Virus record (IMG/VR): IMGVR_UViG_3300025131_000005
Reading direction: 5' to 3' (one strand)
Length of the DNA: 64,000 nt
Origin: a virus
The stretch's first letter is position 1, and every line of letters starts with the position of its first letter. Positions 1 through 53,100 of the stretch are shown piece by piece. Below the pieces are notes generated by a model that saw only the letters and a list, made by a program, of their open reading frames with translations, did not search any database and was not told the origin of the DNA. The position numbers and the translations under genes are program-made.

Positions 1-327
1 GAACACTATGATAATGAAATAGAAAAAATATATTTACGTGAGGACGCAATTATCCCAGGTGAAGAAATCTTTAATATTGGTGCGCCGACAGGATTGTTTT
101 CTTACAATATGGTTAATCGTTTTCGAGGGTTTTATGCAGGAAATATTGCTCTAGGAGATGCAAATAATTTAAAAAATGTTTTTAATTTTCCAGCAGTTGA
201 GGGAAGTTCCGGGTCTCCAATATTTGACGATGAGGGATTATTGATAGGTATTGTTTCAATGTTCTCAAAAGACTTTAACTATATAATCCTTTCACCAACC
301 ATACCAGAGCTGAGAAAAAGGCTATAG
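1..327 (+). CDS. Trypsin-like (S1) serine protease, 5'-truncated by window edge
   Basis: Frame 1 is open from base 1; catalytic-Ser motif EGSSGSPIFD followed by LIGIV. Confidence 0.8.
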   Translation, partial: EHYDNEIEKIYLREDAIIPGEEIFNIGAPTGLFSYNMVNRFRGFYAGNIALGDANNLKNVFNFPAVEGSSGSPIFDDEGLLIGIVSMFSKDFNYIILSPTIPELRKRL

Positions 328-787
328 ACTGAATTAGCCCTATAGGATCAAACTTATTTTTATCTTTGAGAGCTATAGCATCTTTTGCTGCTTTAAGAAA
401 ATTTGGAGTGATCGGATATTTTTCTTTTTGTACTTGATCGAGTGTTAATAATTTATATTCCGAATGCTCAAAACTTAATTTTATATTTTTTACCTTGTCG
501 GATGATAATTTAGAGTAATAATAAGTTATATCATCTTCATGACGAAATATTGTGGGATTTTTAATACTTAAACCTGTTTCTTCTTTGACTTCTCGCTTTA
601 AAGCAACAATAAGATCTTCACCATGGTGCACGTGTCCCCCTGGTAAATCTAGATTACCTTTAAATCTTTCGATATCGCTTATAAGAAATAATATTTTATC
701 GCCTACAAATAAAATAATTTTTGCAACGTATCTACTATCTTCACTTTTCTTAAGATATTTGCACCATTTCTTAATATTGTATTTCAT
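275..787 (-). CDS. Nudix hydrolase
   Basis: Nudix box PGGHVHHGEDLIVALKREVKEETG; N-terminus KKWCKYLKKSE resembles the shared leader. Confidence 0.85.
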   Translation of the reverse strand: MKYNIKKWCKYLKKSEDSRYVAKIILFVGDKILFLISDIERFKGNLDLPGGHVHHGEDLIVALKREVKEETGLSIKNPTIFRHEDDITYYYSKLSSDKVKNIKLSFEHSEYKLLTLDQVQKEKYPITPNFLKAAKDAIALKDKNKFDPIGLIQSIAFFSALVWLVKGLYS

Positions 788-790
788 ATT

Positions 791-1111
791 TCAAGTATTG
801 TCAGTTTTTGTTTTTATAACTGATTCTACAGGACTAGGTGGCGCGGCTTCTTCTGGTGCTGGAGCAAAATCAGAAACATCATCTAGAATATTTCCACATT
901 CTAAACATCTTAGAGTTTGTACCGGTGCCATCTGCTCTTGTCCATTAGGAGACATAAGAGCACTTACCCTTTTCACCTTAAAAACATTTTCAAAATAGAC
1001 GCCTTGACATTTGCCGCAATGAGCATCGGGCGCGGTCATGATTTGTTGCCTCATTTGAGCTGCAGCGGCAGCTTGTGCTACCTGTGCGTTGTTATTTTCC
1101 ATTCCGTTCAT
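791..1111 (-). CDS. Small zinc-ribbon protein
   Basis: CGKC...CLEC pair; abuts neighbouring genes. Confidence 0.6.
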   Translation of the reverse strand: MNGMENNNAQVAQAAAAAQMRQQIMTAPDAHCGKCQGVYFENVFKVKRVSALMSPNGQEQMAPVQTLRCLECGNILDDVSDFAPAPEEAAPPSPVESVIKTKTDNT

Positions 1112-1694
1112 AATAATCCTTCTCCAATTTAGTTAATGTGCTAATTGTTTTAGCAACTGATGTATGTAATATCGCAATACCTCCACTTTTTTCCCAAGCT
1201 TCGGTATAAATCTCGAAATCATCAATCAAAATACAGGGTTTTCCGTTTTTATCGGTAGCCCATTTTTCTTTTTCCCCGTCCAGTGGTAATAGTATATCAT
1301 ACTTTTCAGGATTTGGAAACAAATATTTTTGAATCCAGTACTTTTTTCCTTCTATGCACTCTTCATCCATTGGATGTGAGAGGATTTTGGGGGTTGAAAT
1401 GAATGCTAAGTGTCTCCAAAGTCTAAAAGTCCCCGGAAGAGGCTTTAAGGAAGCCCAAAATTCGTAATCATTCGATAGCAAGTTCTTTACCCAATCAATT
1501 GCAGCTTGTATGCCTCTGTTTTTGACGGGCTCAGTCCAATCTAGACGCCTTTTGAATACTTTTTTAACATTTTTTAGCATTTTTGGGTCTTTTGCGCATG
1601 GGTATATACCATTTTCAAATAAATCTACCAGTACGCCATCCATATCACAGTAAATTTCATATGGAAAGTCATTTTTTTTGGATTTTGCAATCAT
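1092..1694 (-). CDS. HAD-family 5'(3')-deoxyribonucleotidase-like protein
   Basis: HAD motif I YCDMDGVL and motif IV ILIDD; ATG at 1694 preferred to TTG at 1703 because the promoter -10 lies at 1704-1709. Confidence 0.8.
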   Translation of the reverse strand: MIAKSKKNDFPYEIYCDMDGVLVDLFENGIYPCAKDPKMLKNVKKVFKRRLDWTEPVKNRGIQAAIDWVKNLLSNDYEFWASLKPLPGTFRLWRHLAFISTPKILSHPMDEECIEGKKYWIQKYLFPNPEKYDILLPLDGEKEKWATDKNGKPCILIDDFEIYTEAWEKSGGIAILHTSVAKTISTLTKLEKDYYERNGK

Positions 1695-1703
1695 AATGAG
1701 CAA

Positions 1704-1732
1704 ATAATATCAACATTTGGCTCTTTTGTCAA
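1704..1732 (-). promoter_or_regulatory. Sigma70-type (early) promoter
   Basis: Minus strand reads TTGACA-17 nt-TATTAT, with A/T tracts upstream, directly before the nucleotidase gene. Confidence 0.75.
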
Positions 1733-1782
1733 GAAAAAAGGTGTTTTTTGCTAAAAAAAGGCTATTTTTAGTGTTTTTTAGC

Positions 1783-2340
1783 CTATTTTCGAACATTTAT
1801 GCGATCGGAGACCATTAAAATTTCGGGGTATTTATCTCCCAAAAGTGCCACAATATCGACATTTTGTTGAGAATCATCTAAAAATAACACATCATCAGCC
1901 CCTGATTTGATGCGATCTTCGATCCAATTGGCTTTTTCTTGTGGATTTGGGTCCTCTAGTCCCACAATTTTTATTTTTGAGGTATCAATACCAATACTTT
2001 TCAACCAGCCTCTGATTGCCGGTGCTGCTTTTTGTGATCTAGCAGTCAAAATAACGATTTCTCGTTCTCCTTCTGCCTCAACAGCGCCTCGTAAGCGCTT
2101 TACAACCGATTTTATCTGCACAGGGTTGATAACTTCATCAAATTGGCTAAAATCATATTCATTTTCATACGGTTTGTACTCATGATCGGCAAATTCTTCT
2201 GGAGTAAACTCTTCTGAGGTATTGTCCGGATAAACAACTACTACTTTCGAATCAGAGACAGCTAATGTATCATCAAAATCAAAAACACGAAGCTTTGATT
2301 CATTTATATACTCTCGCCAATTTTCAAATAGAAGTTTCAT
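1783..2340 (-). CDS. HAD-superfamily phosphatase with MKLLFENWREYINE leader
   Basis: RVFDFDDTL (DxDxT), ILTAR, K, FLDD motifs. Confidence 0.75.
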   Translation of the reverse strand: MKLLFENWREYINESKLRVFDFDDTLAVSDSKVVVVYPDNTSEEFTPEEFADHEYKPYENEYDFSQFDEVINPVQIKSVVKRLRGAVEAEGEREIVILTARSQKAAPAIRGWLKSIGIDTSKIKIVGLEDPNPQEKANWIEDRIKSGADDVLFLDDSQQNVDIVALLGDKYPEILMVSDRINVRK

Positions 2341-2345
2341 TCCTC
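2308..2345 (-). repeat. Leader repeat A, copy 1
   Basis: 37/38 nt identical to 2882-2919; spans GAGGA-ATG and the codons for MKLLFENWREY. Confidence 0.95.
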
Positions 2346-2543
2346 ATCTTCCGTAGTTTTAAACGTCTTACATTCACAAATAGTTCTACCATCATCAGTT
2401 CTTGCGTAGTCTAAATCGATATTTTCAGCGTAACAGAACTTGTTTTTGTTAAAAATGCAATCTACGCACAAACAAGAGCAAGTCACTTGCGGTAATTCTT
2501 CTTCAGAAATTAAATCTCGCCATTTTTCAAGTAATAGTTTCAT
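2337..2543 (-). CDS. Small Cys-rich protein (DUF1540-like) with MKLLLEKWR leader
   Basis: CSCLCVDCIFNKNKFCYAENI pattern; ATGA overlap with the next gene. Confidence 0.6.
   Translation of the reverse strand: MKLLLEKWRDLISEEELPQVTCSCLCVDCIFNKNKFCYAENIDLDYARTDDGRTICECKTFKTTEDEE
2517..2543 (-). repeat. Leader repeat B, copy 1
   Basis: 27/27 nt identical to 3151-3177 (ATGAAACTATTACTTGAAAAATGGCGA). Confidence 0.95.
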
Positions 2544-2545
2544 CT

Positions 2546-2914
2546 TTAAGCCTCCAAAGGTGTTAAATATACTGGGAATTCTTTTATTCCTAGCTTTTTA
2601 GCTGCTTCTAATCGATGGTGACCATTTAGAACAAAATAAACTGGTTCTGATATACCTGATTTCGCCGCTTTTGGCTGATCATCGATTCTGTGTGGGTTAA
2701 CTGGCGCTTGATTACAAACTTCTAGAGGCTCTAGAATTCCTTGTTGTATTTGTTGCATTTTATCTTGAACAATGTTTTCGCACTCTTGACTTGGACAATC
2801 ATGATCTTTTCCATGGCCCATTTCCTCAGAAGGAACTAATAAATTAACGTCGACATAAAAAACTTTCTTATTTTCTTTCACATACTCTCGCCAATTTTCA
2901 AATAGGAGTTTCAT
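2546..2914 (-). CDS. ParB/sulfiredoxin-like domain protein with MKLLFENWREY leader
   Basis: VLNGHHRLEAAKKLG is the ParB/Srx GHxR motif. Confidence 0.75.
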   Translation of the reverse strand: MKLLFENWREYVKENKKVFYVDVNLLVPSEEMGHGKDHDCPSQECENIVQDKMQQIQQGILEPLEVCNQAPVNPHRIDDQPKAAKSGISEPVYFVLNGHHRLEAAKKLGIKEFPVYLTPLEA

Positions 2915-2919
2915 TCCTC
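2882..2919 (-). repeat. Leader repeat A, copy 2
   Basis: 37/38 nt identical to 2308-2345. Confidence 0.95.
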
Positions 2920-3177
2920 TTCCGCCGAAGGGAATAATACATTCAACATTTCATCGATTTCGTTAAATGCTTCAAATTGTTCTGGGGGCCAATCGTCGGC
3001 GGATCCATATACTTCTTTCATACGTTCACTAATGAATTTTTCGATATCGTTTGCTATTACCCCATTTTTTATTAAAAACATTCTATGGGATTTCTTTTCC
3101 TCCGCGCTTTTCCACGGACCTCGAACAACATCCCCTTCTTTTAGGCGTTTTCGCCATTTTTCAAGTAATAGTTTCAT
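2911..3177 (-). CDS. Hypothetical protein with MKLLLEKWR leader
   Basis: Start placed at the leader ATG (3177) rather than the ORF-track 3204; ends EEE* overlapping the next ATG. Confidence 0.65.
   Translation of the reverse strand: MKLLLEKWRKRLKEGDVVRGPWKSAEEKKSHRMFLIKNGVIANDIEKFISERMKEVYGSADDWPPEQFEAFNEIDEMLNVLFPSAEEE
3151..3177 (-). repeat. Leader repeat B, copy 2
   Basis: 27/27 nt identical to 2517-2543. Confidence 0.95.
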
Positions 3178-3187
3178 TTTATATTTC

Positions 3188-4246
3188 CTATCGAGGTAAG
3201 CCACCTAATAATGTAATTGCGATTAAGCCTGGTGCCCCCGGCTTTACATAAACACCAGAAAATAACGTTTCTGTGCGCCCACCAACATAAGAAATAGCAG
3301 CATCTAAATGTTGGCTGATGGCTGGATCGTTTGCCATTTCCGGAGGCATCACCAAGAGCATTGCTCCAATTTTTGATTTACCAACAGTTGTGGGACATGG
3401 AGATCTTTTTACACAATTTTGAAGTATTTTTGCTCCAAGATCTGGAATATTGGGATCTTTAATCAGTGTCGTGCCAATAAGCATTCTCTTTTCTGCCTCC
3501 AGGCATCTTTCTAGATCTTTTGAGTCAAATGACTGAATTGAGGACTTTTCTGAAGCCAATTTAAGAGTTTGGCTGAACAACTTTGCAAAAGCAGTATTTG
3601 CTGTTGGAAGCATATTAACCAATCCTACTTTACCTCGAAGAAACTTGATTTGTCTCTCATTATCTAAGATAATATGGGGAGAATCCATAACATCATTTGC
3701 CAATACCATAGCATTTTTTGCTATAGTGCCGTTTAATAGCTCCTGAGCGTTCGGGAAGGTCATAATGTAGAATACCTTGCCTTCTGCCCCAACTGCTCTT
3801 AAATAGCGCTTAAACACGTCGTCTAGGGCAAAACATGCACTACCCGTGCCTCCACCCCCGCCTGCGAGGACAAAAAGCCAATCAACCTTACCAAGTTTTG
3901 TTCTGAGGGCATCTTCGACAACAGCGCTGTTCTGGCTGAAGGCACTTTTCCCAACTTCAACGTTTTTGGCAACTCCGTCAGCGTCTGGAATAAGAACCAT
4001 GTTTTTAGGATCAACATTTTCCGGTTGATCTTTGGGAGTTGTATTGATCAGAAGAGTTTTGTTAAAGCCGAGATCCAAAAATGCTTTGGCCAATTTGCCG
4101 CCTCCTCCACCAACACCAATAAAAGCGCAATTTAGGGCGCACTCCACAGTATTGTCTTCTAACATATCTTCATTTTTGATTTCTTCAGAATCATCGTAAT
4201 GATCTACAAAATCAAAATCATCAAATTCATTTTCATCGTTATTCAT
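3188..4246 (-). CDS. Tubulin/FtsZ-superfamily GTPase (phage tubulin, PhuZ/TubZ-like role possible)
   Basis: T1 loop FIGVGGGGGK, INT, signature-like AGGGGGTGS, TFP..E, LDNE, T7-like SFDSKD; acidic N-terminal extension; no FtsZ-type C-terminal linker. Confidence 0.9.
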   Translation of the reverse strand: MNNDENEFDDFDFVDHYDDSEEIKNEDMLEDNTVECALNCAFIGVGGGGGKLAKAFLDLGFNKTLLINTTPKDQPENVDPKNMVLIPDADGVAKNVEVGKSAFSQNSAVVEDALRTKLGKVDWLFVLAGGGGGTGSACFALDDVFKRYLRAVGAEGKVFYIMTFPNAQELLNGTIAKNAMVLANDVMDSPHIILDNERQIKFLRGKVGLVNMLPTANTAFAKLFSQTLKLASEKSSIQSFDSKDLERCLEAEKRMLIGTTLIKDPNIPDLGAKILQNCVKRSPCPTTVGKSKIGAMLLVMPPEMANDPAISQHLDAAISYVGGRTETLFSGVYVKPGAPGLIAITLLGGLPR

Positions 4247-4526
4247 CTTTATCTCCTTTTGTTGATGTATATTTTTTAAGAGGGTCGCGGGCGGTGTTTC
4301 TTACAAGCGCATCAAAATCCTTCTTTAGTTGTTCAAGATCCGGATTATACGTTTGTTTATAAACTTTTTTACGCGGATTCTTTGCTCGTTTAGTCTGCAA
4401 GACTAGTTTTTTCATTGTCGATTTATTGGGATACTCTTTTTCTTCAGCTGCTTCCTGCATGATAGCATAGGTATTCTTAATTTCTTCTTCAATAATCTCT
4501 TTCAATTTTTGTTTTGTAATCTTCAT
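4239..4526 (-). CDS. Hypothetical protein with MKITKQKLKEIIEEE leader
   Basis: ATG at 4526 overlaps the upstream stop (ATGA). Confidence 0.6.
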   Translation of the reverse strand: MKITKQKLKEIIEEEIKNTYAIMQEAAEEKEYPNKSTMKKLVLQTKRAKNPRKKVYKQTYNPDLEQLKKDFDALVRNTARDPLKKYTSTKGDKDE

Positions 4527-6772
4527 TTGAACATATTTCCCCATTTCGTAAATAATTTTAGATTTTCTTTAGATTCTGACATCAAATCGGATAATTCTTC
4601 TACATCTTTCATATCTTTTCTTATTTGAGGAACAATCACTTTTTGTATTTTGTTATTAACTAGACCTTCGAGAAGCTCGCGAGTATACTCTAAAAACTTT
4701 GGTTTGTCGAGGATTTTTATAAATCTTTCAATAGCATTTACTTCTTCTTCAGTATTTTCCCTTACTTGAATATCTAGAGCGTAGCCAAAAGTTAAATGAT
4801 CGGATATCTTATGGGGAAACGCCGGTCCGCCGCCTTTGGGCATCGATCCACCTTTATCTGTTGTTAGCCACAAAGTTACATTGTTTACAGGTACTTGGAC
4901 GCCTTCTTCTTCTGAAAGGGGGAGTTCCATTTGTTTAGTGGCTGCTTGATATACTTTTTCAAATACTCCTTGGAGGTGTTTAAGGAATTCATTTTTTATT
5001 TCAAGGTTTATATGTTTGCCGATCTGTATCATTATCTTATTATAAAATGCTTTTTCTTCGTCAGTGGGGGCGCTTTTTGATGCATCGATGATTTCTGGTG
5101 GGAGCAAGATCTGAATGGGTAGTTGCGTGCTTAACTCAACCTCTGTACCTTCTGGTGTAACCTCAAAATGATCTAGCTCTAAGTCCTCAAAGCGTTTTGA
5201 CATATCTTTGATGGTTTGCCCCACTATCAAACCTGATTCTCTGAATGCTTCTAAAATTTCTTCGTATATTGCTTCGTATTTTTCTTCTAGTGTAACATTT
5301 TCCTCAACAAAGGAACGGAACTCATCCATTGTTGATCCACCGTAAGTGTAAGTGTCGGAAGGAGTAAAGTTAGCGGACACCTCAACTGAACCTCTCCAAT
5401 CGTTAACATCAAGTTCCTCTGGATAAAAATAGTTGTTGTCTAATGCTTTCTCAATGATATCTTTCATATCATCAGTATCTGGATCTTCTACCATATCGTC
5501 AACATCAGAAAAATCAAATGATGTTGAGGAGTTAAAATAATATTTACCCTCATCATATTCGTCGACATTGATGTGAACGCGTGACCATTCATATTCATCT
5601 ATAATATTTTGGAATTCTTCTAGGGTGGGACCGGCTGGATTTTCTTCAAAGTGACCTCCAGCGTATCCCGTTATTTCGCTCAACTCTTCCGATACTTTTT
5701 CATCAAACGTTTCGATAGCGATCTGTATTTGCTGTTCTGGGCTCAAATCTTCATCGGGCTCAGCCTCAATACCCAATGCTTCAAAGGCAACTTTTACATC
5801 TCTGGGAATTTCTAAGGTGTCTTGATTGTAGAACTCAGTACGCCATGTATCAAAATGAGTTTGAAGTTGCTCCTTTCCTGTTTTAAAGTAGCTAGTCTTT
5901 TTATCGCCTTTAAGTTTTTTGCCGACATCAGCAAGACTGGAATCCATAAATCCTTTCGCCAACAGGTTCTCTTTGATTGCTTCTTCTAAACCACCGTATC
6001 CAACTTCATCATCTGCAGCATCATATATTTCTTCTGGTTCATAATCACTTCCTGGACCGTATACCAAAGCCATTTTTTTATTATCGCTATCTTGCGGGAG
6101 ATGCTTGAAGAGGGCCATATAAAAAGCTTTTCCTTCGCCTGAGTACTGGTTAAAGTAATTTTGTGAGGTTGTAGACGAGATACACCACTTCGTGCCTCTG
6201 CCGTAATAACAAGAGCCTTCTGGGCTATAGGGGCGTACCATCATAACATCATCAGTATCCATTACTACTTCGCTGGTTTCTTTTGCGCCCTTTTCTAATT
6301 TGCGCATCGTTTCTCTTTCATTAAATTCTTTTTCTGCATTATATACTTGATGCTCGAAGTCGCCCAAATCTTTAAACTTATCAATATTTTTATCAATCAA
6401 GTTCATAGAAGCAAATTTGTGATACTTGGGTAAGGTGCTTGCTATTCTTCTCGTATAGTGTCTTATATTATCTTCTATATCGCGGACATCTACCTCTCTA
6501 TCATACTCTTTAGCCTCGCCCTCTGCATTTTTTATATACTGCATCACTCTGGAGTTGAGGCGACGAGCAGCCCATCCTAAATATTTTTGATTGCCCGAGG
6601 GATCAGCTTCTATGATAGTATCAAGAAGTTTTTCCAATTCTTTTGCAACCTGCTCGTATTTAACATTTTTTACAACGGCTTTTTTAGCGTCTTCTTTACG
6701 ACCTTCAATGAGAAGCACTTCCTCATCTTCGGATAAAAACTTGCGCCATCTTTCAAATAATAGCTTACTCAT
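4523..6772 (-). CDS. Large acidic hypothetical protein with MSKLLFERWRKFLSE leader
   Basis: 749-codon ORF from ATG 6772; DPSGNQKY and SCYYGRGTKWCIS motifs; function not recognised. Confidence 0.7.
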   Translation of the reverse strand: MSKLLFERWRKFLSEDEEVLLIEGRKEDAKKAVVKNVKYEQVAKELEKLLDTIIEADPSGNQKYLGWAARRLNSRVMQYIKNAEGEAKEYDREVDVRDIEDNIRHYTRRIASTLPKYHKFASMNLIDKNIDKFKDLGDFEHQVYNAEKEFNERETMRKLEKGAKETSEVVMDTDDVMMVRPYSPEGSCYYGRGTKWCISSTTSQNYFNQYSGEGKAFYMALFKHLPQDSDNKKMALVYGPGSDYEPEEIYDAADDEVGYGGLEEAIKENLLAKGFMDSSLADVGKKLKGDKKTSYFKTGKEQLQTHFDTWRTEFYNQDTLEIPRDVKVAFEALGIEAEPDEDLSPEQQIQIAIETFDEKVSEELSEITGYAGGHFEENPAGPTLEEFQNIIDEYEWSRVHINVDEYDEGKYYFNSSTSFDFSDVDDMVEDPDTDDMKDIIEKALDNNYFYPEELDVNDWRGSVEVSANFTPSDTYTYGGSTMDEFRSFVEENVTLEEKYEAIYEEILEAFRESGLIVGQTIKDMSKRFEDLELDHFEVTPEGTEVELSTQLPIQILLPPEIIDASKSAPTDEEKAFYNKIMIQIGKHINLEIKNEFLKHLQGVFEKVYQAATKQMELPLSEEEGVQVPVNNVTLWLTTDKGGSMPKGGGPAFPHKISDHLTFGYALDIQVRENTEEEVNAIERFIKILDKPKFLEYTRELLEGLVNNKIQKVIVPQIRKDMKDVEELSDLMSESKENLKLFTKWGNMFK

Positions 6773-6821: not shown

Positions 6822-7469
6822 TTAAAGAGAAAATACCCTTATCATGCCTTTTGTTACATCAATCATTCTAGTGTGAGCCGGCGTCCATCCGTGATATTTA
6901 GGACCTTCGTGGTCTGGGTCTCCATGTCCTTGGCGAGTTTGTGCACGAATAGCTAAATGAACCAGTTCGTGGATAAATGCTGTCTCTGATATTTCTTCCT
7001 TTTCTCCCTTATAAACCCATATTGTTGTCGGACCCATAACACGACCAATAATATTGTGGTTTGTAAATTTCTTACCGTCGAGAAAGAAACCTCGCTTCGA
7101 AACTTTAACCTTTTCGCCCCATTCGATCATAACTTTACGGAGAAGTTCTTTTACAGAATAATCATAGTCACCAAAATTCTCCACCCAATTATAATAAAAT
7201 AATGTCATAGCAAGAGACACTCTATGATTAGGATATATATCACATCGGGTTACAATCTGTGTGGCATATTTAAAATAAGGTATCATTATCATTTGAGGAA
7301 AGGGCTTACTAGAATCACACTGTGATAAAATCTTTCGCACCTTTTCAAAGGTAGCATTAGTAGAGGGGGGCATATTAACTCCATGACCCGAACAAGTTAG
7401 AGTGATTAACGATAAAAACAACACTATCAACACCTTTCTCACCTTGTTTCTTCTCCCACCTATTTGCAA
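6822..7469 (-). CDS. Putative lipoprotein with zincin HExxH motif
   Basis: RKVLIVLFLSLITLTC signal/lipobox-like segment; FIHELVH followed by GHGDPDHE. Confidence 0.6.
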   Translation of the reverse strand: MQIGGRRNKVRKVLIVLFLSLITLTCSGHGVNMPPSTNATFEKVRKILSQCDSSKPFPQMIMIPYFKYATQIVTRCDIYPNHRVSLAMTLFYYNWVENFGDYDYSVKELLRKVMIEWGEKVKVSKRGFFLDGKKFTNHNIIGRVMGPTTIWVYKGEKEEISETAFIHELVHLAIRAQTRQGHGDPDHEGPKYHGWTPAHTRMIDVTKGMIRVFSL

Positions 7470-9475
7470 ATCTCATTAAATATTTCCATTAAATTGTTAT
7501 ACATATCAGTCGGATTGCTAGTGAGCATATAATTCTTTCCATTTCCTGCATCCGATAAATCGGTCCATGATTGTATTGTATTTTTTGAAAACGTGTATAG
7601 TTTAAGTTGGGGGGTGCCGCCAATTGCGGTGATAACATCTTGCTCAGTTAACTGAGGCACTAAGTAACTCTGAGGGGGTTCATCACTAAAAACGATTACA
7701 ATACGATCAGCTCCTGCGCGCCAACTAACTTTAAAATCTTGTAAAGGAGGTATTGATTCTTTAACTCCCCATGGTTGAGTACTGTATACTCCGCTTTCTC
7801 CTTTCCATACCATATCACTAATATTATAGTTAATAGTGGCGCTAATATTACGAAGCGATAAGTATACAGCGTCTAGAATCATCTCATAAGAAGTTTGCAT
7901 CGCTGCCCAATTGGTACCTAACTGTCCCATAGAAGTAAGGAATTCAGTAAACCCGACCAGATTTTGGTGCAATTCTAAACGTTCATCTTGAGATCCGAAT
8001 GTTTCGAAAACATCCAATGGTCCACGAATTAAAGCCCAATTAATAACTTCTTCATCGCTAAAATTAGCAGCAAATTGATTTAACGCTATCATAACGGCGT
8101 CGATTTCATCAGCCATTGAACCGGACCAATCTACAATGAAAAGAATATCTGTATCGGGTATTTCTTCACCCCAATCCGTTTCACCGTCACAATCATCGTC
8201 TAGACCGTTGCAAAGTTCTTCTTGAGGAGTTACTTCTTCTTTACAATAATAAGGAATAAAAGCGCCTTCTTCAGAATCATTACCCCAAATACCTTTATCA
8301 CAATACATTTCTCCAGGTTTGCATTCTCCGGCGTATAAGGTCCCTTCGGGTCCTGTATAACATCCAGAAAACAAATCTTCATCAATTAGTTGATTGCAGT
8401 TATCATCAAAATTATTACACTCTTCCTTTTCTAGTTCCATTCCTATGAGCGGATCACATACAGTTTGAGGATTCGGGGGGAAATGATGACAAATAGCATA
8501 GCAGGGAGTTGTTATAATTGTTTTGCATTCAGGATCTAAACATTCGCAAGTTTTATATCCTTGACCACATAGGAGAGGCGATTCTTGACATGGAAATAGA
8601 GATCCTACATCTTGTATAGTACAAATACATTCAAGACCTTCGTCGACTTGTCCATTGCAGTTATTATCTAGTCCATCGCAAATTTCATCTAATTCTGGTG
8701 GGGCCGTACAAGATATCCAATTACCACTTTCACATATTTCTACCCCATTTCCACAAGCAGTAGCACATGGTTGAAAAAGCTCTTCATCTGTTAATCCATC
8801 GCAATCATCATCATAAGCGTTGCACTCTTCTGAGGGGATGGTTCCGCATTCATTACAATCATTTAATTGTTCTTCATCTGTAAATCCATCGCAGTCATCA
8901 TCAAGTTCGTTACAGGTTTCTTCTGGGATTTCTTCACAATCATTACAAGCATTTAAAACACCTTCATCTATTTCACCATCGCAGTCATTGTCAATATAAT
9001 CGCAAGTTTCTTCTACACAATCTGTAATACAATCTGTATATTGAATTTTTCCTTTATTACAAACTTTTTCTACAACGCCAGCGTATCCATCATCAGTTGT
9101 GCATTCTAAAAAGTCAATATGATATTGTGATGGGTCACATTCCATATATTCTTCACATTCACCTTCGGAATGCAATGTGGGGGGATTATCACACATGTTT
9201 AAACAAATTTCTTTTTGCCATATAGCATCTAGAGGTGGACAAAAATACCATTTGCACTCGACACATTCTTCAAGAGGAGGAGAAATATCTTCTTCTACCC
9301 ATGGAGTCCAACGTACTGCATCATCAGAAAAAATATCTTCTTGTTCGGTGTAGGTATTTTCGTCAGAAAAAAAAGATCCATCGCTGCCGGAGGTATTAGA
9401 ACAATTAACAGCCGATGCGCCGATAAAAATTATCAACAGTGTCAGTCGCGTGATTGTTTTAATATTGTTTTTCAT
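7460..9475 (-). CDS. Putative lipoprotein with Cys/Asp 'CDGxDNDCDGxxDE' repeats and C-terminal vWA domain
   Basis: Signal ending AVNC; six repeats such as CDYIDNDCDGEIDEG and CDGLDNNCNGQVDEG; MIDAS motif IVDWSGSM; VFSDE. Confidence 0.8.
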   Translation of the reverse strand: MKNNIKTITRLTLLIIFIGASAVNCSNTSGSDGSFFSDENTYTEQEDIFSDDAVRWTPWVEEDISPPLEECVECKWYFCPPLDAIWQKEICLNMCDNPPTLHSEGECEEYMECDPSQYHIDFLECTTDDGYAGVVEKVCNKGKIQYTDCITDCVEETCDYIDNDCDGEIDEGVLNACNDCEEIPEETCNELDDDCDGFTDEEQLNDCNECGTIPSEECNAYDDDCDGLTDEELFQPCATACGNGVEICESGNWISCTAPPELDEICDGLDNNCNGQVDEGLECICTIQDVGSLFPCQESPLLCGQGYKTCECLDPECKTIITTPCYAICHHFPPNPQTVCDPLIGMELEKEECNNFDDNCNQLIDEDLFSGCYTGPEGTLYAGECKPGEMYCDKGIWGNDSEEGAFIPYYCKEEVTPQEELCNGLDDDCDGETDWGEEIPDTDILFIVDWSGSMADEIDAVMIALNQFAANFSDEEVINWALIRGPLDVFETFGSQDERLELHQNLVGFTEFLTSMGQLGTNWAAMQTSYEMILDAVYLSLRNISATINYNISDMVWKGESGVYSTQPWGVKESIPPLQDFKVSWRAGADRIVIVFSDEPPQSYLVPQLTEQDVITAIGGTPQLKLYTFSKNTIQSWTDLSDAGNGKNYMLTSNPTDMYNNLMEIFNEICK

Positions 9476-30059: not shown

Positions 30060-30860
30060 ATGAAAATTGCATTTATATCATATATTTTTGGCAACGACCA
30101 CGCCGTTGTTAATTTTGGAACCTTCAAGATGATGAGTTCTTTCAAACGTTTTCATCCGGATATTCCTCTCTATATGCTTACAGAGAAAGAGATTAACAAA
30201 GAGGCACAAACAGTAGTTCCGATGAGTATGACTTATTTAAATCCTCTAATGACGCGTACAATCGCTGATGATTATGACCTTGTGGTTCATATCGATACCG
30301 ATGTTGTGGTAACGGATCGCTTAGATGAAATTCTAGAGGGCGATTATGATGTTGCGGTGGGACGCAATAATGCGGATCAAAGAACTGCAGGATGTGGCAC
30401 TCCTCACACTCTAAATGGAGAAGTAGACGTTTTTAAATATGCAAATGCGGGAATTGTAGCATCTACTAAAAAGGAATTTTGGGATGATTGGGTTGAATTA
30501 AATCAAAAGAATTTTAATAAATATCCTATGCATGAACAAGACAATTTAAATATTTTGATTAATTCAGGTAAATATAAAGTTAAATGGTTAGATCCACCGG
30601 AAAAATCGCTATATTATAATATTGCTAGTGCCTATGGAGATCCCAAGTGGAATGGTCAGTGGGACAAACACTGGGAAAGTTGGGAAAGAATTGAACTTAA
30701 AGATGATAAATTGTGGCTCGATGGAAAACTGATAAAGATGTTACATTATGCCGGGGGGAATACGCCCGATAAATTTAATCTTACGAGGCATTTTTCTGAT
30801 GAAGTCACAGAGCATATTAAAAAGCTTTGTAATATACCAAAGAAATTTAAAGGAGAATAA
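30060..30860 (+). CDS. GT-A glycosyltransferase (GT8-like)
   Basis: HIDTD (DxD), NAGIV, EQDNLN, LHYAG. Confidence 0.8.
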   Translation: MKIAFISYIFGNDHAVVNFGTFKMMSSFKRFHPDIPLYMLTEKEINKEAQTVVPMSMTYLNPLMTRTIADDYDLVVHIDTDVVVTDRLDEILEGDYDVAVGRNNADQRTAGCGTPHTLNGEVDVFKYANAGIVASTKKEFWDDWVELNQKNFNKYPMHEQDNLNILINSGKYKVKWLDPPEKSLYYNIASAYGDPKWNGQWDKHWESWERIELKDDKLWLDGKLIKMLHYAGGNTPDKFNLTRHFSDEVTEHIKKLCNIPKKFKGE

Positions 30861-30862
30861 AA
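30659..30862 (+). repeat. 204-bp perfect direct repeat, copy 1 (3' end of GT8 gene plus RBS)
   Basis: Identical by eye to 31914-32117 (offset 1255). Confidence 0.95.
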
Positions 30863-30864
30863 AG

Positions 30865-31806
30865 ATGACTGTTTATGATTTCTGTCCATTTTTAGACGAA
30901 AACGATCTATATGAACTTAGGTTAAACCAGCATTGGAATTTTGTTGATAAATTTATTGTAGTGGAAGCTTCAGAAACACACACTGGACACGCAAAACCTT
31001 TTAACTTTGATCAAAAAAGATTTGAAAAATATTCTGAAAAACTCATATATGTTCAAATTGATTTTCATGACGCGTTCACGAGTAACGATTTTTTAGATAG
31101 TTTTACAAATTTTGATGAAAGACCACCTGAGTGGATTAGAGATAACTATCAAGGAAATTATTTTACTAAAATTTTAAAAGATTTAGGCGCGCAAGATGAC
31201 GATATAATTTATGCTAGTTCTTTAGATGAGATAATTAGAGAAGAAGCTTTTTATGAATCTTTGCGTATTTTTAAAAACACAAAAAATATCAAATTTGCAT
31301 TGCAAACCCCTCCTAATCACCCGCCCCATCTTGTGCAATATTGGCATCATAATCAAAATGTTTTTTTTCCAAACAAGGTAAGTCGTCCTATAATGGGCTT
31401 TCATATGGAGTGGTTTGTATATAAGTTTAATTTAACATCTCACATACGTTGCCCCATGGGCAATATTACAGAATATTCAACTTATAAACAAATCTTACCA
31501 GCAACGATGAGACACATGGCTCTTTCGACACACCCGCCAATTGGCACAACTGAAAAGCCTGCAGGGTGGCATTTTACTTTTTTAGATGACACAAATGGAG
31601 ATAAAATTATAAAAAAACTAGATTCTTATGCGCATCATGTCGATTATATGCCCGAGTATTTAAACCTCGATAAACACGATGTAACACTAAAGATGCTTAG
31701 AAAACACAGAGCAAAGAAAAAACCGCTGACATTTCCTGATTTTCCATCTTATTTAATTGACAACTTAGATAAATTTAAAAATTATATCTTCGAAGGCAGC
31801 ACTTAA
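30865..31806 (+). CDS. GT17-like glycosyltransferase, paralog a
   Basis: MTVYDFCPF..E...ELRL, VEASETHTG, RDNYQ, GWHFTF; AGGAG RBS. Confidence 0.8.
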   Translation: MTVYDFCPFLDENDLYELRLNQHWNFVDKFIVVEASETHTGHAKPFNFDQKRFEKYSEKLIYVQIDFHDAFTSNDFLDSFTNFDERPPEWIRDNYQGNYFTKILKDLGAQDDDIIYASSLDEIIREEAFYESLRIFKNTKNIKFALQTPPNHPPHLVQYWHHNQNVFFPNKVSRPIMGFHMEWFVYKFNLTSHIRCPMGNITEYSTYKQILPATMRHMALSTHPPIGTTEKPAGWHFTFLDDTNGDKIIKKLDSYAHHVDYMPEYLNLDKHDVTLKMLRKHRAKKKPLTFPDFPSYLIDNLDKFKNYIFEGST

Positions 31807-31807
31807 A

Positions 31808-31987
31808 ATGGCTGTTTACGATTGCTTTCCTTTTTTCAACGAAAATGATTTATTAGAACTAAGGTTAAATCAACATTGGAATTACGTAGACAAATTTATT
31901 ATCACTGAAGCCGGTGGGACAAACACTGGGAAAGTTGGGAAAGAATTGAACTTAAAGATGATAAATTGTGGCTCGATGGAAAACTGA
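31808..31987 (+). pseudogene. Truncated GT17-like paralog b fused out of frame to the duplicated GT8 segment
   Basis: 36 codons MAVYDCFPFFNENDLLELRLNQHWNYVDKFIITEAG run into repeat copy 2 and stop at 31985-31987. Confidence 0.85.
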
Positions 31988-32117
31988 TAAAGATGTTACA
32001 TTATGCCGGGGGGAATACGCCCGATAAATTTAATCTTACGAGGCATTTTTCTGATGAAGTCACAGAGCATATTAAAAAGCTTTGTAATATACCAAAGAAA
32101 TTTAAAGGAGAATAAAA
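31914..32117 (+). repeat. 204-bp perfect direct repeat, copy 2
   Basis: Identical by eye to 30659-30862. Confidence 0.95.
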
Positions 32118-32818
32118 TGAAGGTACAGAAACAAATGGAGAGTATTAATTATGAATTTGGAGGTGATTTATTTATTGACGTCGGCGCTAACGTCGGCATG
32201 TGGGTTAAGGAGCTGGGGTATCTTTATGGCAGAATCATATGTATAGAGCCGAGTCAAGAGGCTTTTAAACTACTCAGATCTGCAACGGAATACAAATATG
32301 GAGATAAGACAACTTATATAAATAAAGCTGGTTGGTCCGAGAGTAATTTAAGATTAGATTTAGCAGCTGGGGGACACGATACTGGAAATTTTACAGTTTT
32401 TGGAGAAAAATTGATAAAACCAGAAAATATAATCAAACGTGATACATGCACTACCATGACTATAGATGAATTACTTGACGAGGTGAAGGACGAAGAAAAA
32501 GATATTCTAATTAAAATAGATACAGAGGGAGCAGATTGGGAAATCCTTGACGGCGCGAGAGATTTTATCAAGGCACACAGGCCAACGATTGCTTTGGAGA
32601 ATCATTTTCATATGCATTATGATAAAGAAAAATATTATTCATTGATTTCTTTTTTTCATGAACAAAATTATAATATAATTGAATTTAAGAATACCGACTA
32701 TCTTGAGTCCTACAATCACCAACGAATTTTTGGCGGTGACCGGGATTATACGGGAGCAGAGATGTATGACAAACATTACCAAATGATATTTGAACCAAAA
32801 AAGTTTTTAGGTGAGTAG
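32117..32818 (+). CDS. FkbM-family SAM-dependent methyltransferase
   Basis: FIDVGANVG, IEP, TIDE, IKIDTEGADWEIL; uses the RBS supplied by repeat copy 2. Confidence 0.85.
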   Translation: MKVQKQMESINYEFGGDLFIDVGANVGMWVKELGYLYGRIICIEPSQEAFKLLRSATEYKYGDKTTYINKAGWSESNLRLDLAAGGHDTGNFTVFGEKLIKPENIIKRDTCTTMTIDELLDEVKDEEKDILIKIDTEGADWEILDGARDFIKAHRPTIALENHFHMHYDKEKYYSLISFFHEQNYNIIEFKNTDYLESYNHQRIFGGDRDYTGAEMYDKHYQMIFEPKKFLGE

Positions 32819-32825
32819 GTGAATA

Positions 32826-33755
32826 ATGGCAGTATATGATTGTTTCCCCTTCTTTAACGAAAATGATTTACTTGAGATAAGATTAAATCAACATTGGGAT
32901 TATGTAGATAAATTTATTGTTACAGAGGCAGGAGAGACCCATACCGGCTTGAAGAAACCATTTAATTTTGATCATGAACGATTCAAAAAGTATGACTCAA
33001 AAATAATTTACCATCAAATTAAAGATTTTAGAAAAGAAATTCAAGAAGTTGGCGCGGAGGTATTAGATAATTATAGCCTTCGTGACCGCAGCCAAAATGG
33101 GCAGTTTACAGATGATTGGGTAAGAGATCATTTTCAAGGAAACTATCCAGTAAAAATCTTAAAAGAATTAGGAGCCAAAGATACGGATATAACTTATTTC
33201 AGTGCTGTAGATGAAATTTTGAGTGATCAAGGTTTTAAAGAAGGAATAGCTCGTTTTGTAAACAAAGATGAGATGTACGAACTAAAAAGTGGTGGTGAAA
33301 AGGTACATAGTCAAAATAATCAACCTGTACTTATAAGACCAACTTTTGGATTTTTTTTGGATACGTATGTGTACAAATTCAATTTATTTTGTAAGAAAAT
33401 TTCTGTGGCACAAATGACTGAATTTTCTGTTCTTAAGCAAATGTTACCATCAACTATGAGAGGCATGTCTATGGGTACACATCCTAGTGTTGATAATGCC
33501 GGGTGGCATTTTACTTTTATGGATAATACGGATGGTGATAGGGTCCTTCAAAAACAAAAAAGCTGGGCACACTCCAGAGATGTCATTCCCGGTCAAAAAG
33601 TTAAGTTTACACATACAACAAAAAAAGAGGCGTTGGAGAGACTATTTGAGGATCTTAAAGTCACCAAAGTCCCTATAACTGAACAATCACATCCCAAATA
33701 TTTGATTGATAATTTAGAGAAATACAAAGACTACATATGTGAAGAAAAAGGTTGA
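32826..33755 (+). CDS. GT17-like glycosyltransferase, paralog c
   Basis: MAVYDCFPFFNE, TEAGETHTG, RDHFQ, GWHFTF. Confidence 0.8.
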   Translation: MAVYDCFPFFNENDLLEIRLNQHWDYVDKFIVTEAGETHTGLKKPFNFDHERFKKYDSKIIYHQIKDFRKEIQEVGAEVLDNYSLRDRSQNGQFTDDWVRDHFQGNYPVKILKELGAKDTDITYFSAVDEILSDQGFKEGIARFVNKDEMYELKSGGEKVHSQNNQPVLIRPTFGFFLDTYVYKFNLFCKKISVAQMTEFSVLKQMLPSTMRGMSMGTHPSVDNAGWHFTFMDNTDGDRVLQKQKSWAHSRDVIPGQKVKFTHTTKKEALERLFEDLKVTKVPITEQSHPKYLIDNLEKYKDYICEEKG

Positions 33756-50137: not shown

Positions 50138-53100
50138 ATGGCAGATATTATAGGACTAACAGATGAGGGGCTTCTGACTTCTGACGCTTTTGATTTTTGG
50201 GATCAGCCAAAAGCTGCAGCTCTTTTTCAGAAAATCAGCGGGCCGCCACCAGATGGCGCTGGCGCACATGCTTATAATCCAGAAACCAGCCAACTTCTAA
50301 TTAGTGATTCCGCAGATTTTAATGAGATTTCTACTCTAACAATCCCATTAGATGAAGAAGGAAAAGTTAATGTATATTTGGGTATCGTGGAGGGCAACCA
50401 TACCGTTGAAGAGTCTTTATATGATAATGATGCTTTTAAAAATCCCGCTACTCACTCTCCTGCTTTCAAAAATAATGGATTTCTAACACTTTATTATTTG
50501 GTACGTACCACAGTCGATATGGGTGTACCCTTTAATACGGAAAATGTCTTAAAAAGCGTATTGGGGGATAAATATGAACAATTTACAACAACATCTATAA
50601 CTGATGCATCTTCTGCAACTCTAAGTTTTGAAATAGATATTTCAACAATTTCAGTGAATTTCGAGCCTATCGATGAACCGGACATCCCCGCACCTCGTAC
50701 AATCTCTCATTTGGATTTTGTAGCTTTCATCTCGAAATATCCACACGTATATACTTTGGGGCAAGATAGGATAAACGCCCTTCAATTGCTCACGGAGAAT
50801 GATGGTCCACCTAACAGCACTACCTTAATAACAGTAGAGTCCGACGAATTCAAACCATCAGAAGTCTCGCGCTGGCAACCTATTCAGAAATCCCAAGCTA
50901 CCCATTATGTATATTTTGGCACACCCGGTACTCCAGATGTAGATGATAAATATGCGACAATGCGAACTGGCTATATTAAAACAACCAACAATAATAGCTC
51001 TATAACGAAAAAACAGGATATTTTCGAAGCTAGTACTGGAAATTATGCGATTTTTAAGGGCGCACCCATAATAGGTCGTCTTCCAAATGGGGCACAGGTT
51101 CAAGTAGTAAGGGAGGGTTTTGGTAAAGGAGCTTTATTTTCTCAATTTAAACTCAAGTATTATCCAAAGAATCATGAACATACTTTTATAAAGTCAGGAT
51201 ATCCTAAATTTATTGACTCTCGTACTTTAATGCCATTTGGAAATGTTTCGGAGAAGACTAATGAAGAATTTGACTTTTTAACTATACCAAAAATTGAAGT
51301 ACCAGAACCTGATCCTAATTTTATAGAACCTGATTGGACTCAGAAAGATGATTGTGAACCATGGCTGAATGAAAAGACAAATGAATATTGTATTATGTAC
51401 GAACATCGAGGCAAAAATCTTCCTGGTACGTCTGACAAGGAGATGATTAGAAGGAAAGGAGTTATCAGGCTCTTGTCATACTACGACAAAAAAAGATCTC
51501 CTGGATTTGTTGACAAACTTCTTGAACTTAACAATGGTCTATTCGCCAGAATAGTTGAGGAATCTTCTAGTTCTAGAAAAGACAAAACTTATAAATTTCT
51601 AATAGGAATTCCTCGAACTTATTTTGAGCATCCATTTTTGGATGTTAATCCTTATCGTATTGATAATCCAAGCCTAGAGAAACTATCCACTGAACACAAG
51701 AAAATAGATTATTGGTGGGTGATTAAAACAAACAAGATAGAAAAATGGATCGATGATACAATAAGAGTTGTTTCTAGAGATTTCAAAAAACGACTTTCTA
51801 AAGCTAATTCGCAATTAGATCCAAAATTTATTGTCAATATGGAAGTGGAGAACTTAAAAAAATTCCTTCCTGCCTTAAAAGAATTTATGTTTCTTAATGA
51901 TGCAACATTGCAAACCGATAGAGCGGATGGTTTGATATTTGGTTTTGATTTCAGACATAGGCTTAAAATGGTGTTATATCAGCAGACAAATTATGAGCCA
52001 CCAAATAAGAAACTTGTTGTAATGTCGAAAAAGAAGAGTAAAAGTGGACGACAAAAAACACAAGAAGGTCCATCGCGCTATTTGGGCATAAGTCTTCCTT
52101 GTTTTCGTAATCCTAATAAAAATCCTGGTTGCTCCCCACGTACTCTTGCTTATTTGCGTTTTGGACAAGATATGCAATCAGCAGTAGAGTCTGACAAATA
52201 TCCTGGCTTAGAGCTTGTATTGAAGTATACAATAGGTCCAGAAATCAGCTTATTCCCTTCAGCACCGAAAAAACAAGAAGAAGGACTATCCTCCGAAGAA
52301 ATAAGTGATAAAGTACAAACCATATTTGATAACAAGCCAAAAAGTGGCGATAAAACAATTAAAACAGAAAAAGAGCTAAAAGAAGAAACTAAAAAATTAA
52401 TCAATCCCGCAAAAAGAGCGAAGACCTATAATAGCAGGAAAGATGTTAGAATAAATAATTTTGATACTGCATTATCTGAGATGGAAAAGATATTCGATGG
52501 CGCTGTTGATTCGAAAGGTTATTATAAGCGCATCCTTAATATAATTGATATTAAAAATCTTATTTCTGTTGCTTATACATGCTTAGGTAAAGTATTGCCT
52601 GTTAACGATCTTAAGGCACTTATTCGTAAAAATGTTTTAAAAACAATTGGTTATGAAAATCTTAAAGCTTTTGTAGAAATTCTTGCAGAGAAAAAGTATT
52701 TGGAAGAAGTGTGCCCGAACTTGATTCCCTTTGGTGTTGATCCTAACACCACCACCGCAGCTTCCGCTAATTTTGGAGAAGAAGGGACTCCTCCACCGGG
52801 GTTAACCGATACTAAAGTTAGTGAGGATGATGAAGAAGCTGCAGCGCCCAAAGGATTGATGGAGGTAGTAAACGATGCTATAAAAAGTATAGAGGATGAT
52901 TATCTTTGCTATTCTAATGGAGAAATAAAGTCTGCTTTGGGTCCGGATTTTTCTAAGTCAATTGAATCATTAGATAATATTCCCGCCGACTTAAAAAATG
53001 CAAATATTTATGCAGCTGCAAAGCAAGATGCTGATTTCAGAACAAAACAACAAGAAAAACTTTTGCAAGAATTAAATGTAAGATTAGTTGATAAATTAGA

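Follow-up and report, generated by a model that had tools for sequence, protein, structure and literature searches.

In a 64,000-nucleotide (nt) stretch of viral DNA (IMG/VR virus record IMGVR_UViG_3300025131_000005; this whole stretch is hereafter called the window), four tandem genes on the minus strand (g4-g3-g2-g1, from 3177 down to 1783) begin with near-identical DNA, seen as two pairs of repeats, A and B (Table 1). We found that these repeats are the gene starts themselves, made up of the ribosome-binding site and the first 9-14 codons, and that natural variants of the locus in related viruses show deletion, insertion and replacement of whole gene cassettes at these leaders. In our view the locus is probably an array of gene cassettes within a hyperplastic region, with the repeats as its coding leaders; recombination takes place at these leaders, and the leader peptide may serve as a tag for loading proteins into the phage head.

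The two copies of repeat A are identical at 37 of 38 nt and those of repeat B at all 27, exactly as the original prediction had reported, and dinucleotide-preserving shuffles of the window contained no matches like them. That prediction had also placed the end of the upstream gene, the ribosome-binding site and the leader codons together in repeat A, which is seen in the ATGA stop/start overlap that joins the stop of the preceding gene to the leader ATG; the gaps between cassettes measure -4, 2, -4 and 10 nt. Behind repeat A, genes g1 and g3 start with MKLLFENWR (followed by EY), and behind repeat B, genes g2 and g4 start with MKLLLEKWR; a fifth copy of the leader in the window begins a gene of 749 amino acids (aa). 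The payloads behind the leaders are unrelated, as had been proposed, with no similarity among g1-g4 once the leaders are removed, and an apparent homology of g1 and g3 past the leader (a 105-nt, 70% repeat) was rejected on this ground. The alternating B-A-B-A order, which had been put forward as the defining feature of the locus, is incidental and without significance, as it is not conserved: a close relative, L129, has the order B-A-A-B.

We compared the locus across related contigs, as the original prediction had suggested, using the tubulin-like gene next to g4 as an anchor to fetch relatives (1 from IMG/VR and 44 from metagenomes). Between the tubulin-like gene and a 5'-nucleotidase (NT5C) gene these relatives carry two, three or four tagged genes with differing payloads. 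The slot after the tubulin-like gene holds g4, g3, g2 and g1 and then NT5C in the window; g4, an additional tagged gene of 399 aa, g3 and then the start of g2 in L129 (tubulin-like gene 98% identical); another payload at the first position in L130 (95%); a gene like the 399-aa one immediately after the tubulin-like gene in L131 (90%); three other tagged genes and then NT5C in L001 (80%); and two others and then NT5C in L132 (79%). Positions 3183-4557 of L129 align with the window as far as base 26 of the g3 leader, and positions 5727-6159 align with it starting one base ahead of the ATG of that leader. The 26-nt leader flanks the 1.2 kb specific to L129 on each side and is present as a single copy in the window. 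The leader is perfect on either side of this indel, and the flanks are 99-100% identical to the window across 300 nt to the left and 433 nt to the right. This is what a recent exchange between two copies of the leader leaves behind. An apparent step in identity at the leader (100% against 95.6%) was dropped, as a 100-nt sliding view shows patchy divergence with both immediate flanks at 99-100%. In the first slot the leaders are chimeric, their 5' part going with the tubulin flank and their 3' part with the payload, and the crossover lies after about base 12 in L131, after about base 20 in L130 and after base 26 in the window/L129 indel. The proposal that recombination between leaders swaps, adds or deletes tagged payloads is borne out by the L129 indel and by these crossovers within the leader in other relatives.

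The same pattern was seen when 179 stretches (1.49 Mb) were compared all against all at 88% identity or more. Internal homology ends fell in leader windows, which make up 1.1% of the DNA, in 22 out of 103 cases, and 21 of the 41 start-proximal ends lay at tagged starts, which are 13% of all starts (binomial p = 5e-9); per tagged start there were about 7-fold as many homology ends as per untagged start, with the events partly dependent (about ten distinct) and the loci picked for carrying leaders. Two pairs of stretches (L081/L082 and L062/L097) have a single cassette in common, from its leader to the end of the next leader, within otherwise different arrays. Separately, we observed leader-only mini-genes of 14 and 22 codons followed by a stop (L028 11127-11171 and L063 10890-10958) upstream of out-of-frame genes, which resemble solo leaders left by recombination.

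A second leader family (type 2, MKITKxQLKxIIKEE) heads at least 85 genes of the loci that were fetched; these genes encode unrelated small proteins and are often arrayed. In the comparison of the window with L129, homology spans the type-2 leader, ends right behind it and resumes 17 nt before the tubulin start, and the payload in between is one gene of 101 aa in the window and two genes of 155 and 69 aa in L129. In these alignments, the type-2 leader behaves like the leader of g1-g4 (type 1). Type-2 arrays often lie beside type-1 arrays (window 4239-4544, minus strand; L132 1036-2752; L121 2272-4578), and the type-2 leader resembles the N-terminus (L-K-P-L-I-K-E) of a conserved 145-aa protein that comes after the prohead protease.

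The type-1 leader, with the consensus MKLL[FL]E[NK]WR-x-hydrophobic-hydrophobic-x-E, is a widespread, portable tag. More than 120 IMG/VR stretches among the matches listed fit a degenerate DNA pattern of the A leader, and 9 stretches carry the B form. The fetched loci contain 250 distinct tagged genes, with unrelated payloads of 60 to more than 800 residues. These genes cluster on one strand, with up to five near each other in four complete genomes. A same-strand upstream open reading frame (ORF) ends within 60 nt of 209 out of 248 tagged starts, and 107 of the 248 have the ATGA overlap, so that the first four bases of the leader terminate the previous gene. The NT5C and NUDIX families occur tagged, untagged and with a decayed tag; the leader is therefore gained and lost as a module. 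In the decayed leader of the NUDIX gene of the window, W8, Y11 and L12 are retained and LL-x-E is lost, and homologues in other contigs have the full leader or none.

We then considered what the leader peptide might do. An [LIVMF]-x-E motif lies within 8 residues after W-R in 234 of the 250 leaders (94%) and in all five window leaders, which as a sequence motif matches the [LIV]-x-E-type cleavage rule of the T4 prohead protease gp21 (PMC9026906). All four complete tag-bearing genomes (190-205 kb) encode a Peptidase_S77 protease and a gp23-like capsid protein, and Peptidase_S77 is also present in tubulin-anchored relatives. Apart from the tagged genes, just one recurrent family among 1897 distinct predicted genes examined has the leader core [LIV]-L-x-E-x-[WYF] within its first 14 residues, and this is the prohead protease, with 13 homologues that begin MSKKLLREYYEL or similarly. 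T4 gp21 begins MNEPQLLIETW, with the same LL-x-E-x-W pattern as the leader, and its N-terminus has been suggested to be possibly similar to a capsid-targeting sequence (CTS) (PMC9026906). The N-terminal propeptide of gp21 (LIE-9 site; PMC9026906), the proteases of the tag-bearing phages and the type-1 leader all have an LL-x-E-x-W/Y core at the extreme N-terminus together with a protease-type site, a likeness that spans 5-6 residues only. A similar comparison with the N-terminus of the capsid protein was dropped as too loose. In the AlphaFold2 model of g1, the leader (residues 1-14, including a short helix over residues 2-10) lies outside the HAD fold, which starts at residue 16, but confidence in the leader is low (pLDDT below 50). 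Matches of g1 to HAD phosphatases by structure are weak. Because of the [LIV]-x-E ending, the S77 protease in all four genomes and the likeness to the protease N-terminus, we lean towards the view that the type-1 leader is a putative capsid-targeting propeptide like the CTS of T4.

It is somewhat unlikely, in our judgment, that the leader is instead a helix for docking to some other partner, or a tag that this partner recognises, be it a modifying enzyme, a complex for replication or nucleotide metabolism, the tubulin-like filament or a degradation system. The NT5C, NUDIX and HAD payload enzymes act in the cytoplasm in T4, and the array flanks a tubulin-like gene, as such a partner would suggest. 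However, only one of the four complete tag-bearing genomes has a tubulin-like gene, and a dependence of the tag on this neighbour was rejected because the other three lack it. The 8 genes nearest to the array include no radical-SAM gene, and the single one in the window sits 37 kb off within a sugar-synthesis cluster. Moreover, the [LIV]-x-E ending, the presence of S77 in every complete genome checked and the resemblance to the protease N-terminus point to the head.

Identity at synonymous sites had been taken in the original prediction as a sign of recent duplication or gene conversion, and this holds in part: the DNA-level signal is real, but it is weak per pair and partly family-wide. With the codon use at each leader position taken from 216 leaders, the B pair matches at every synonymous site with P = 0.026, and the A pair at all codons but one with P = 0.032. 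Among leader pairs from different contigs, only 0.04% reach 37/38 over the full 38 nt. Leu4 is CTA in 62% of leaders (9.5% genome-wide), Leu3 is CTC in 44% (6%) and Arg9 is CGA in 56% (13.5%). As these leader codons are rare elsewhere in the genome, the leader must be kept or copied at the level of DNA, and in this way stays a good recombination substrate; recombination in T4 works at homologies of 2-10 bp (PMC9391042). Both g1 and g3 of the window have REY-[IV]-x-E and their orthologues in other phages have differing leader subtypes, a pattern consistent with homogenisation within the genome.

The repeats might instead reflect no more than purifying selection on the N-terminal peptide together with codon bias, with gene turnover by illegitimate recombination of which only in-frame products survive. 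Even between unrelated contigs, leaders share about 78% of their sequence across 38 nt, which, like the modest P values per pair, fits such selection, and accessory genes vary whatever the mechanism. We nevertheless regard this explanation as improbable, because it does not account for the perfect 26-nt repeat and near-identical flanks of the L129 indel, the chimeric leaders with differing crossover points, the enrichment of breakpoints at tagged starts, or the leader codons that are otherwise uncommon in this genome, which mean that it is the DNA that is conserved or copied. We give slightly less credence still to an RNA-level element that keeps the DNA alike, such as a translational-repressor operator or an initiation or ramp signal. 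Rare codons are kept at fixed positions across the family and the element overlaps the ribosome-binding site and start codon, but Leu3, Leu4 and Arg9 each use 5-6 codons while the residues stay, variants such as MRLLFENFR and MKLLMENWR retain the peptide pattern, and the leader core also occurs in the protease protein; an RNA role would, moreover, be compatible with roles in recombination and protein sorting. That the repeated leaders misled metagenome assembly and so produced the differences of L129, L130 and L131 from the window is hardly credible, since, although short repeats are able to mis-join assembly graphs and every comparator is a metagenome contig, the exact repeats are just 26-27 nt, below the usual final k-mers, the four independent contigs give four coherent gene orders with intact reading frames, and the same pattern is found in unrelated contig pairs.

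Several points weigh against leader-mediated exchange of head-loaded proteins. On the side of recombination, synonymous identity departs little from expectation in either pair (P about 0.03), the breakpoints at leaders could partly mirror the survival of in-frame products and not a preference of recombination, and assembly error at repeats is formally possible in variants that come from metagenome assemblies. On the side of the head, some payloads (NT5C, NUDIX and HAD phosphatases) are not obvious injected proteins, and the leader has no homology to the T4 CTS: the two agree just in the initial M-K, in Glu at position 6 and in the x-E at the end, and the leader is closer to the N-terminus of gp21. 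Furthermore, there is no head protease or capsid gene within the 64-kb window, so that T4-type head maturation is inferred from relatives, and type-1 leaders are absent from Flavobacterium phage immuto, the isolate with the most similar capsid protein (45% identity).

We propose the following mechanism for leader-mediated exchange. Each cassette has a ribosome-binding site, 9-14 leader codons and an unrelated payload, and the cassettes abut, mostly via ATGA, with the leader ATG and the following A giving the preceding gene its stop. Because the leader DNA is near-identical among cassettes and its frame constant, homologous recombination between any two leaders, in one genome or between co-infecting relatives, can delete, insert or replace whole payloads while keeping reading frames and translational coupling intact, as the natural variants show. 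As a short helix, the leader may then dock the payload to the prohead core, where a gp21-type protease would cut it off at [LIV]-x-E, and the array would amount to a swappable set of proteins that is packaged in the head and presumably injected with the DNA.

The comparison with T4 internal proteins (IPs) made in the original prediction is reasonable, as the lineage is T4-like with a gp21-type protease. T-even IP loci encode unrelated injected proteins with the CTS alone in common, and vary in the number, order and identity of their genes (Repoila 1994, via PMC2839356, PMC4122927 and PMC3012670; for the CTS, Mullaney and Black 1996, via PMC9026906). T-even IP loci and the array are alike in joining unrelated proteins to a common short N-terminal propeptide, in varying among close relatives, and probably in going with a gp21-type protease that cuts after [L/I]-x-E (for the array, the protease is seen in relatives and the site as a motif); the T-even payloads are thought to be injected counter-defence proteins. 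The two differ in that the leader has 14 aa and a sequence other than that of the 10-aa T4 CTS (MKTYQEFIAE), and in that the array lineage, which consists of uncultured marine far-T4 phages, has at least two leader families and hundreds of tagged payloads, including intact enzymes and 750-aa proteins. In addition, the crossover in the array was mapped inside the leader codons, whereas shuffling in T-even phages was later ascribed to flanking promoter/stem-loop elements (PeSLs; PMC2839356). A PeSL is an intergenic regulatory module of a terminator-like hairpin, a sigma-70-type promoter and a ribosome-binding site (Arbiol et al., 2010, PMC2839356; Comeau et al., 2014, PMC4122927). PeSLs and the array alike have short repeats that flank ORFans in hyperplastic regions. 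Neighbouring copies recombine with no need for a dedicated recombinase, so that close relatives lose, gain or exchange genes, and in the array, too, the breakpoints of such indels and replacements lie within the repeat. However, there is no promoter or terminator between the cassettes, and in contrast to the intergenic PeSL the repeat is protein-coding and in frame with the cassettes abutting, the sole PeSL-like element lying outside the array. Integron cassettes, too, are promoterless, tightly packed, unrelated genes on the same strand with a repeated recombination sequence and variation among close relatives, but integrons have structured attC-type sites, while the array has a translated repeat whose exchange would presumably rely on general phage recombination. 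Of the roughly 75 ORFs in the window, the 40 that were scanned gave no integrase match, and no search aimed at integrases was made. Full-text literature searches returned no phage papers containing pieces of either leader peptide. Together, these comparisons support a T4-style shuffling of leader-tagged cassettes with the crossover inside the coding leader.

Table 1. Leader repeats, cassette genes and flanking features in the window.
Feature	Position	Strand	Description
Repeat A1	2308-2345	-	End of g2 (Glu-Glu-stop), GAGGA ribosome-binding site, g1 leader codons 1-11
Repeat A2	2882-2919	-	End of g4, GAGGA, g3 leader; 2889-2914 is the 26-nt leader bracketing the 399-aa cassette indel in L129
Repeat B1	2517-2543	-	g2 codons 1-9 (MKLLLEKWR)
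Repeat B2	3151-3177	-	g4 codons 1-9; homology of L130 and L131 to the window stops inside this leader
g1	1783-2340	-	185 aa; type-1 leader and HAD-type phosphatase (DxDxT motif); Pfam and PHROG matches
g2	2337-2543	-	68 aa; B leader and Cys-rich payload
g3	2546-2914	-	122 aa; type-1 leader and ParB/sulfiredoxin-like domain
g4	2911-3177	-	88 aa; B leader and payload without assigned family; start set at ATG 3177, which has a ribosome-binding site
Small gene	4239-4544	-	Type-2 leader MKITKQKLKEIIEEEI; payload 4264-4476 replaced in L129
FtsZ/tubulin-like gene	3188-4246	-	Conserved left anchor of the variable slot; Pfam Tubulin below cut-off; best solved-structure match is a tubulin/FtsZ GTPase
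749-aa gene	4523-6772	-	Type-1 leader variant MSKLLFERWRKFLSE; family tagged in nearly all relatives
5'(3')-deoxyribonucleotidase (NT5C-like)	1092-1694	-	Conserved right anchor; untagged in the window, tagged in other phages
Intergenic element	1704-1782	-	Sole real intergenic gap; weak stem-loop with T-run, then sigma-70-like promoter TTGACA-17-TATTAT at 1732-1704
NUDIX hydrolase	275-787	-	Decayed type-1 leader MKYNIKKWCKYLKK

On the minus strand the genes follow in the order 749-aa gene, small gene, FtsZ/tubulin-like gene, g4, g3, g2, g1, gap, 5'-nucleotidase, zinc-ribbon protein and NUDIX hydrolase. Family searches found no homologue of g2. The promoter in the gap, just upstream of the nucleotidase gene, is near-consensus sigma-70 with an extended -10, and this PeSL-like element bounds the cassette array; no T4 late-promoter motif was found near the array. 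A gene of the FtsZ/tubulin superfamily in a T4-like phage (also at L157 7980-9038) is an observation in its own right. In more distant tubulin-bearing relatives it stands within a head-morphogenesis module (large terminase, portal, Peptidase_S77 protease, 145-aa protein, tubulin-like gene, 347-aa protein and gp23-like capsid protein), between the S77 protease and scaffold-like/capsid genes, an odd location for a cytoskeletal GTPase. A 759-aa homologue of the 749-aa protein has a C-terminal leader-like motif, L-F-E-N-W-R-A-F-I-K (L001 9618-9656), and the window protein has a weaker form of it at its end. Adjoining the 749-aa gene, in relatives too, is a gene for a 671-aa protein (7460-9475, minus strand) whose N-terminus is hydrophobic and signal-like and which has many Cys-rich metal-binding repeats of the MopE type.

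Elsewhere, the window encodes PhoH, sugar-synthesis genes and a gp6-like baseplate wedge. The sugar-synthesis region holds a perfect 207-nt direct repeat (30659-30865 and 31914-32120) in a tandem two-gene duplication (30748-31987 and 32003-33755), and a 3131-aa ORF (50138-59533, plus strand) lies upstream of the baseplate-wedge-like gene. No cultured-phage match was found by a DNA search with the locus or by tblastn with the 749-aa and tubulin-like proteins. Since the closest cultured capsid proteins, those of immuto, Microcystis phage Mel-JY01 and Rhodothermus phage RM378, are about 45% identical, the window belongs to a marine myophage lineage of far-T4 type.

Tentatively, we suggest that a single element of 27-42 nt may do two jobs, as a head-loading and cleavage tag derived from the N-terminal propeptide of the protease and as the in-frame crossover site of an integron-like system without an integrase, which together with the second leader family would allow a large library of injected effectors to be exchanged. 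If this double role is true, sequence alone could reveal which proteins uncultured phages inject. A simple rule for safe gene shuffling without a dedicated recombinase also emerges from the locus, namely to place the recombination homology inside a common in-frame coding leader that also supplies the previous stop codon. If the tag does load the capsid, hundreds of ORFans and enzymes of abundant uncultured marine phages would become predictable injected proteins and candidate counter-defence factors.

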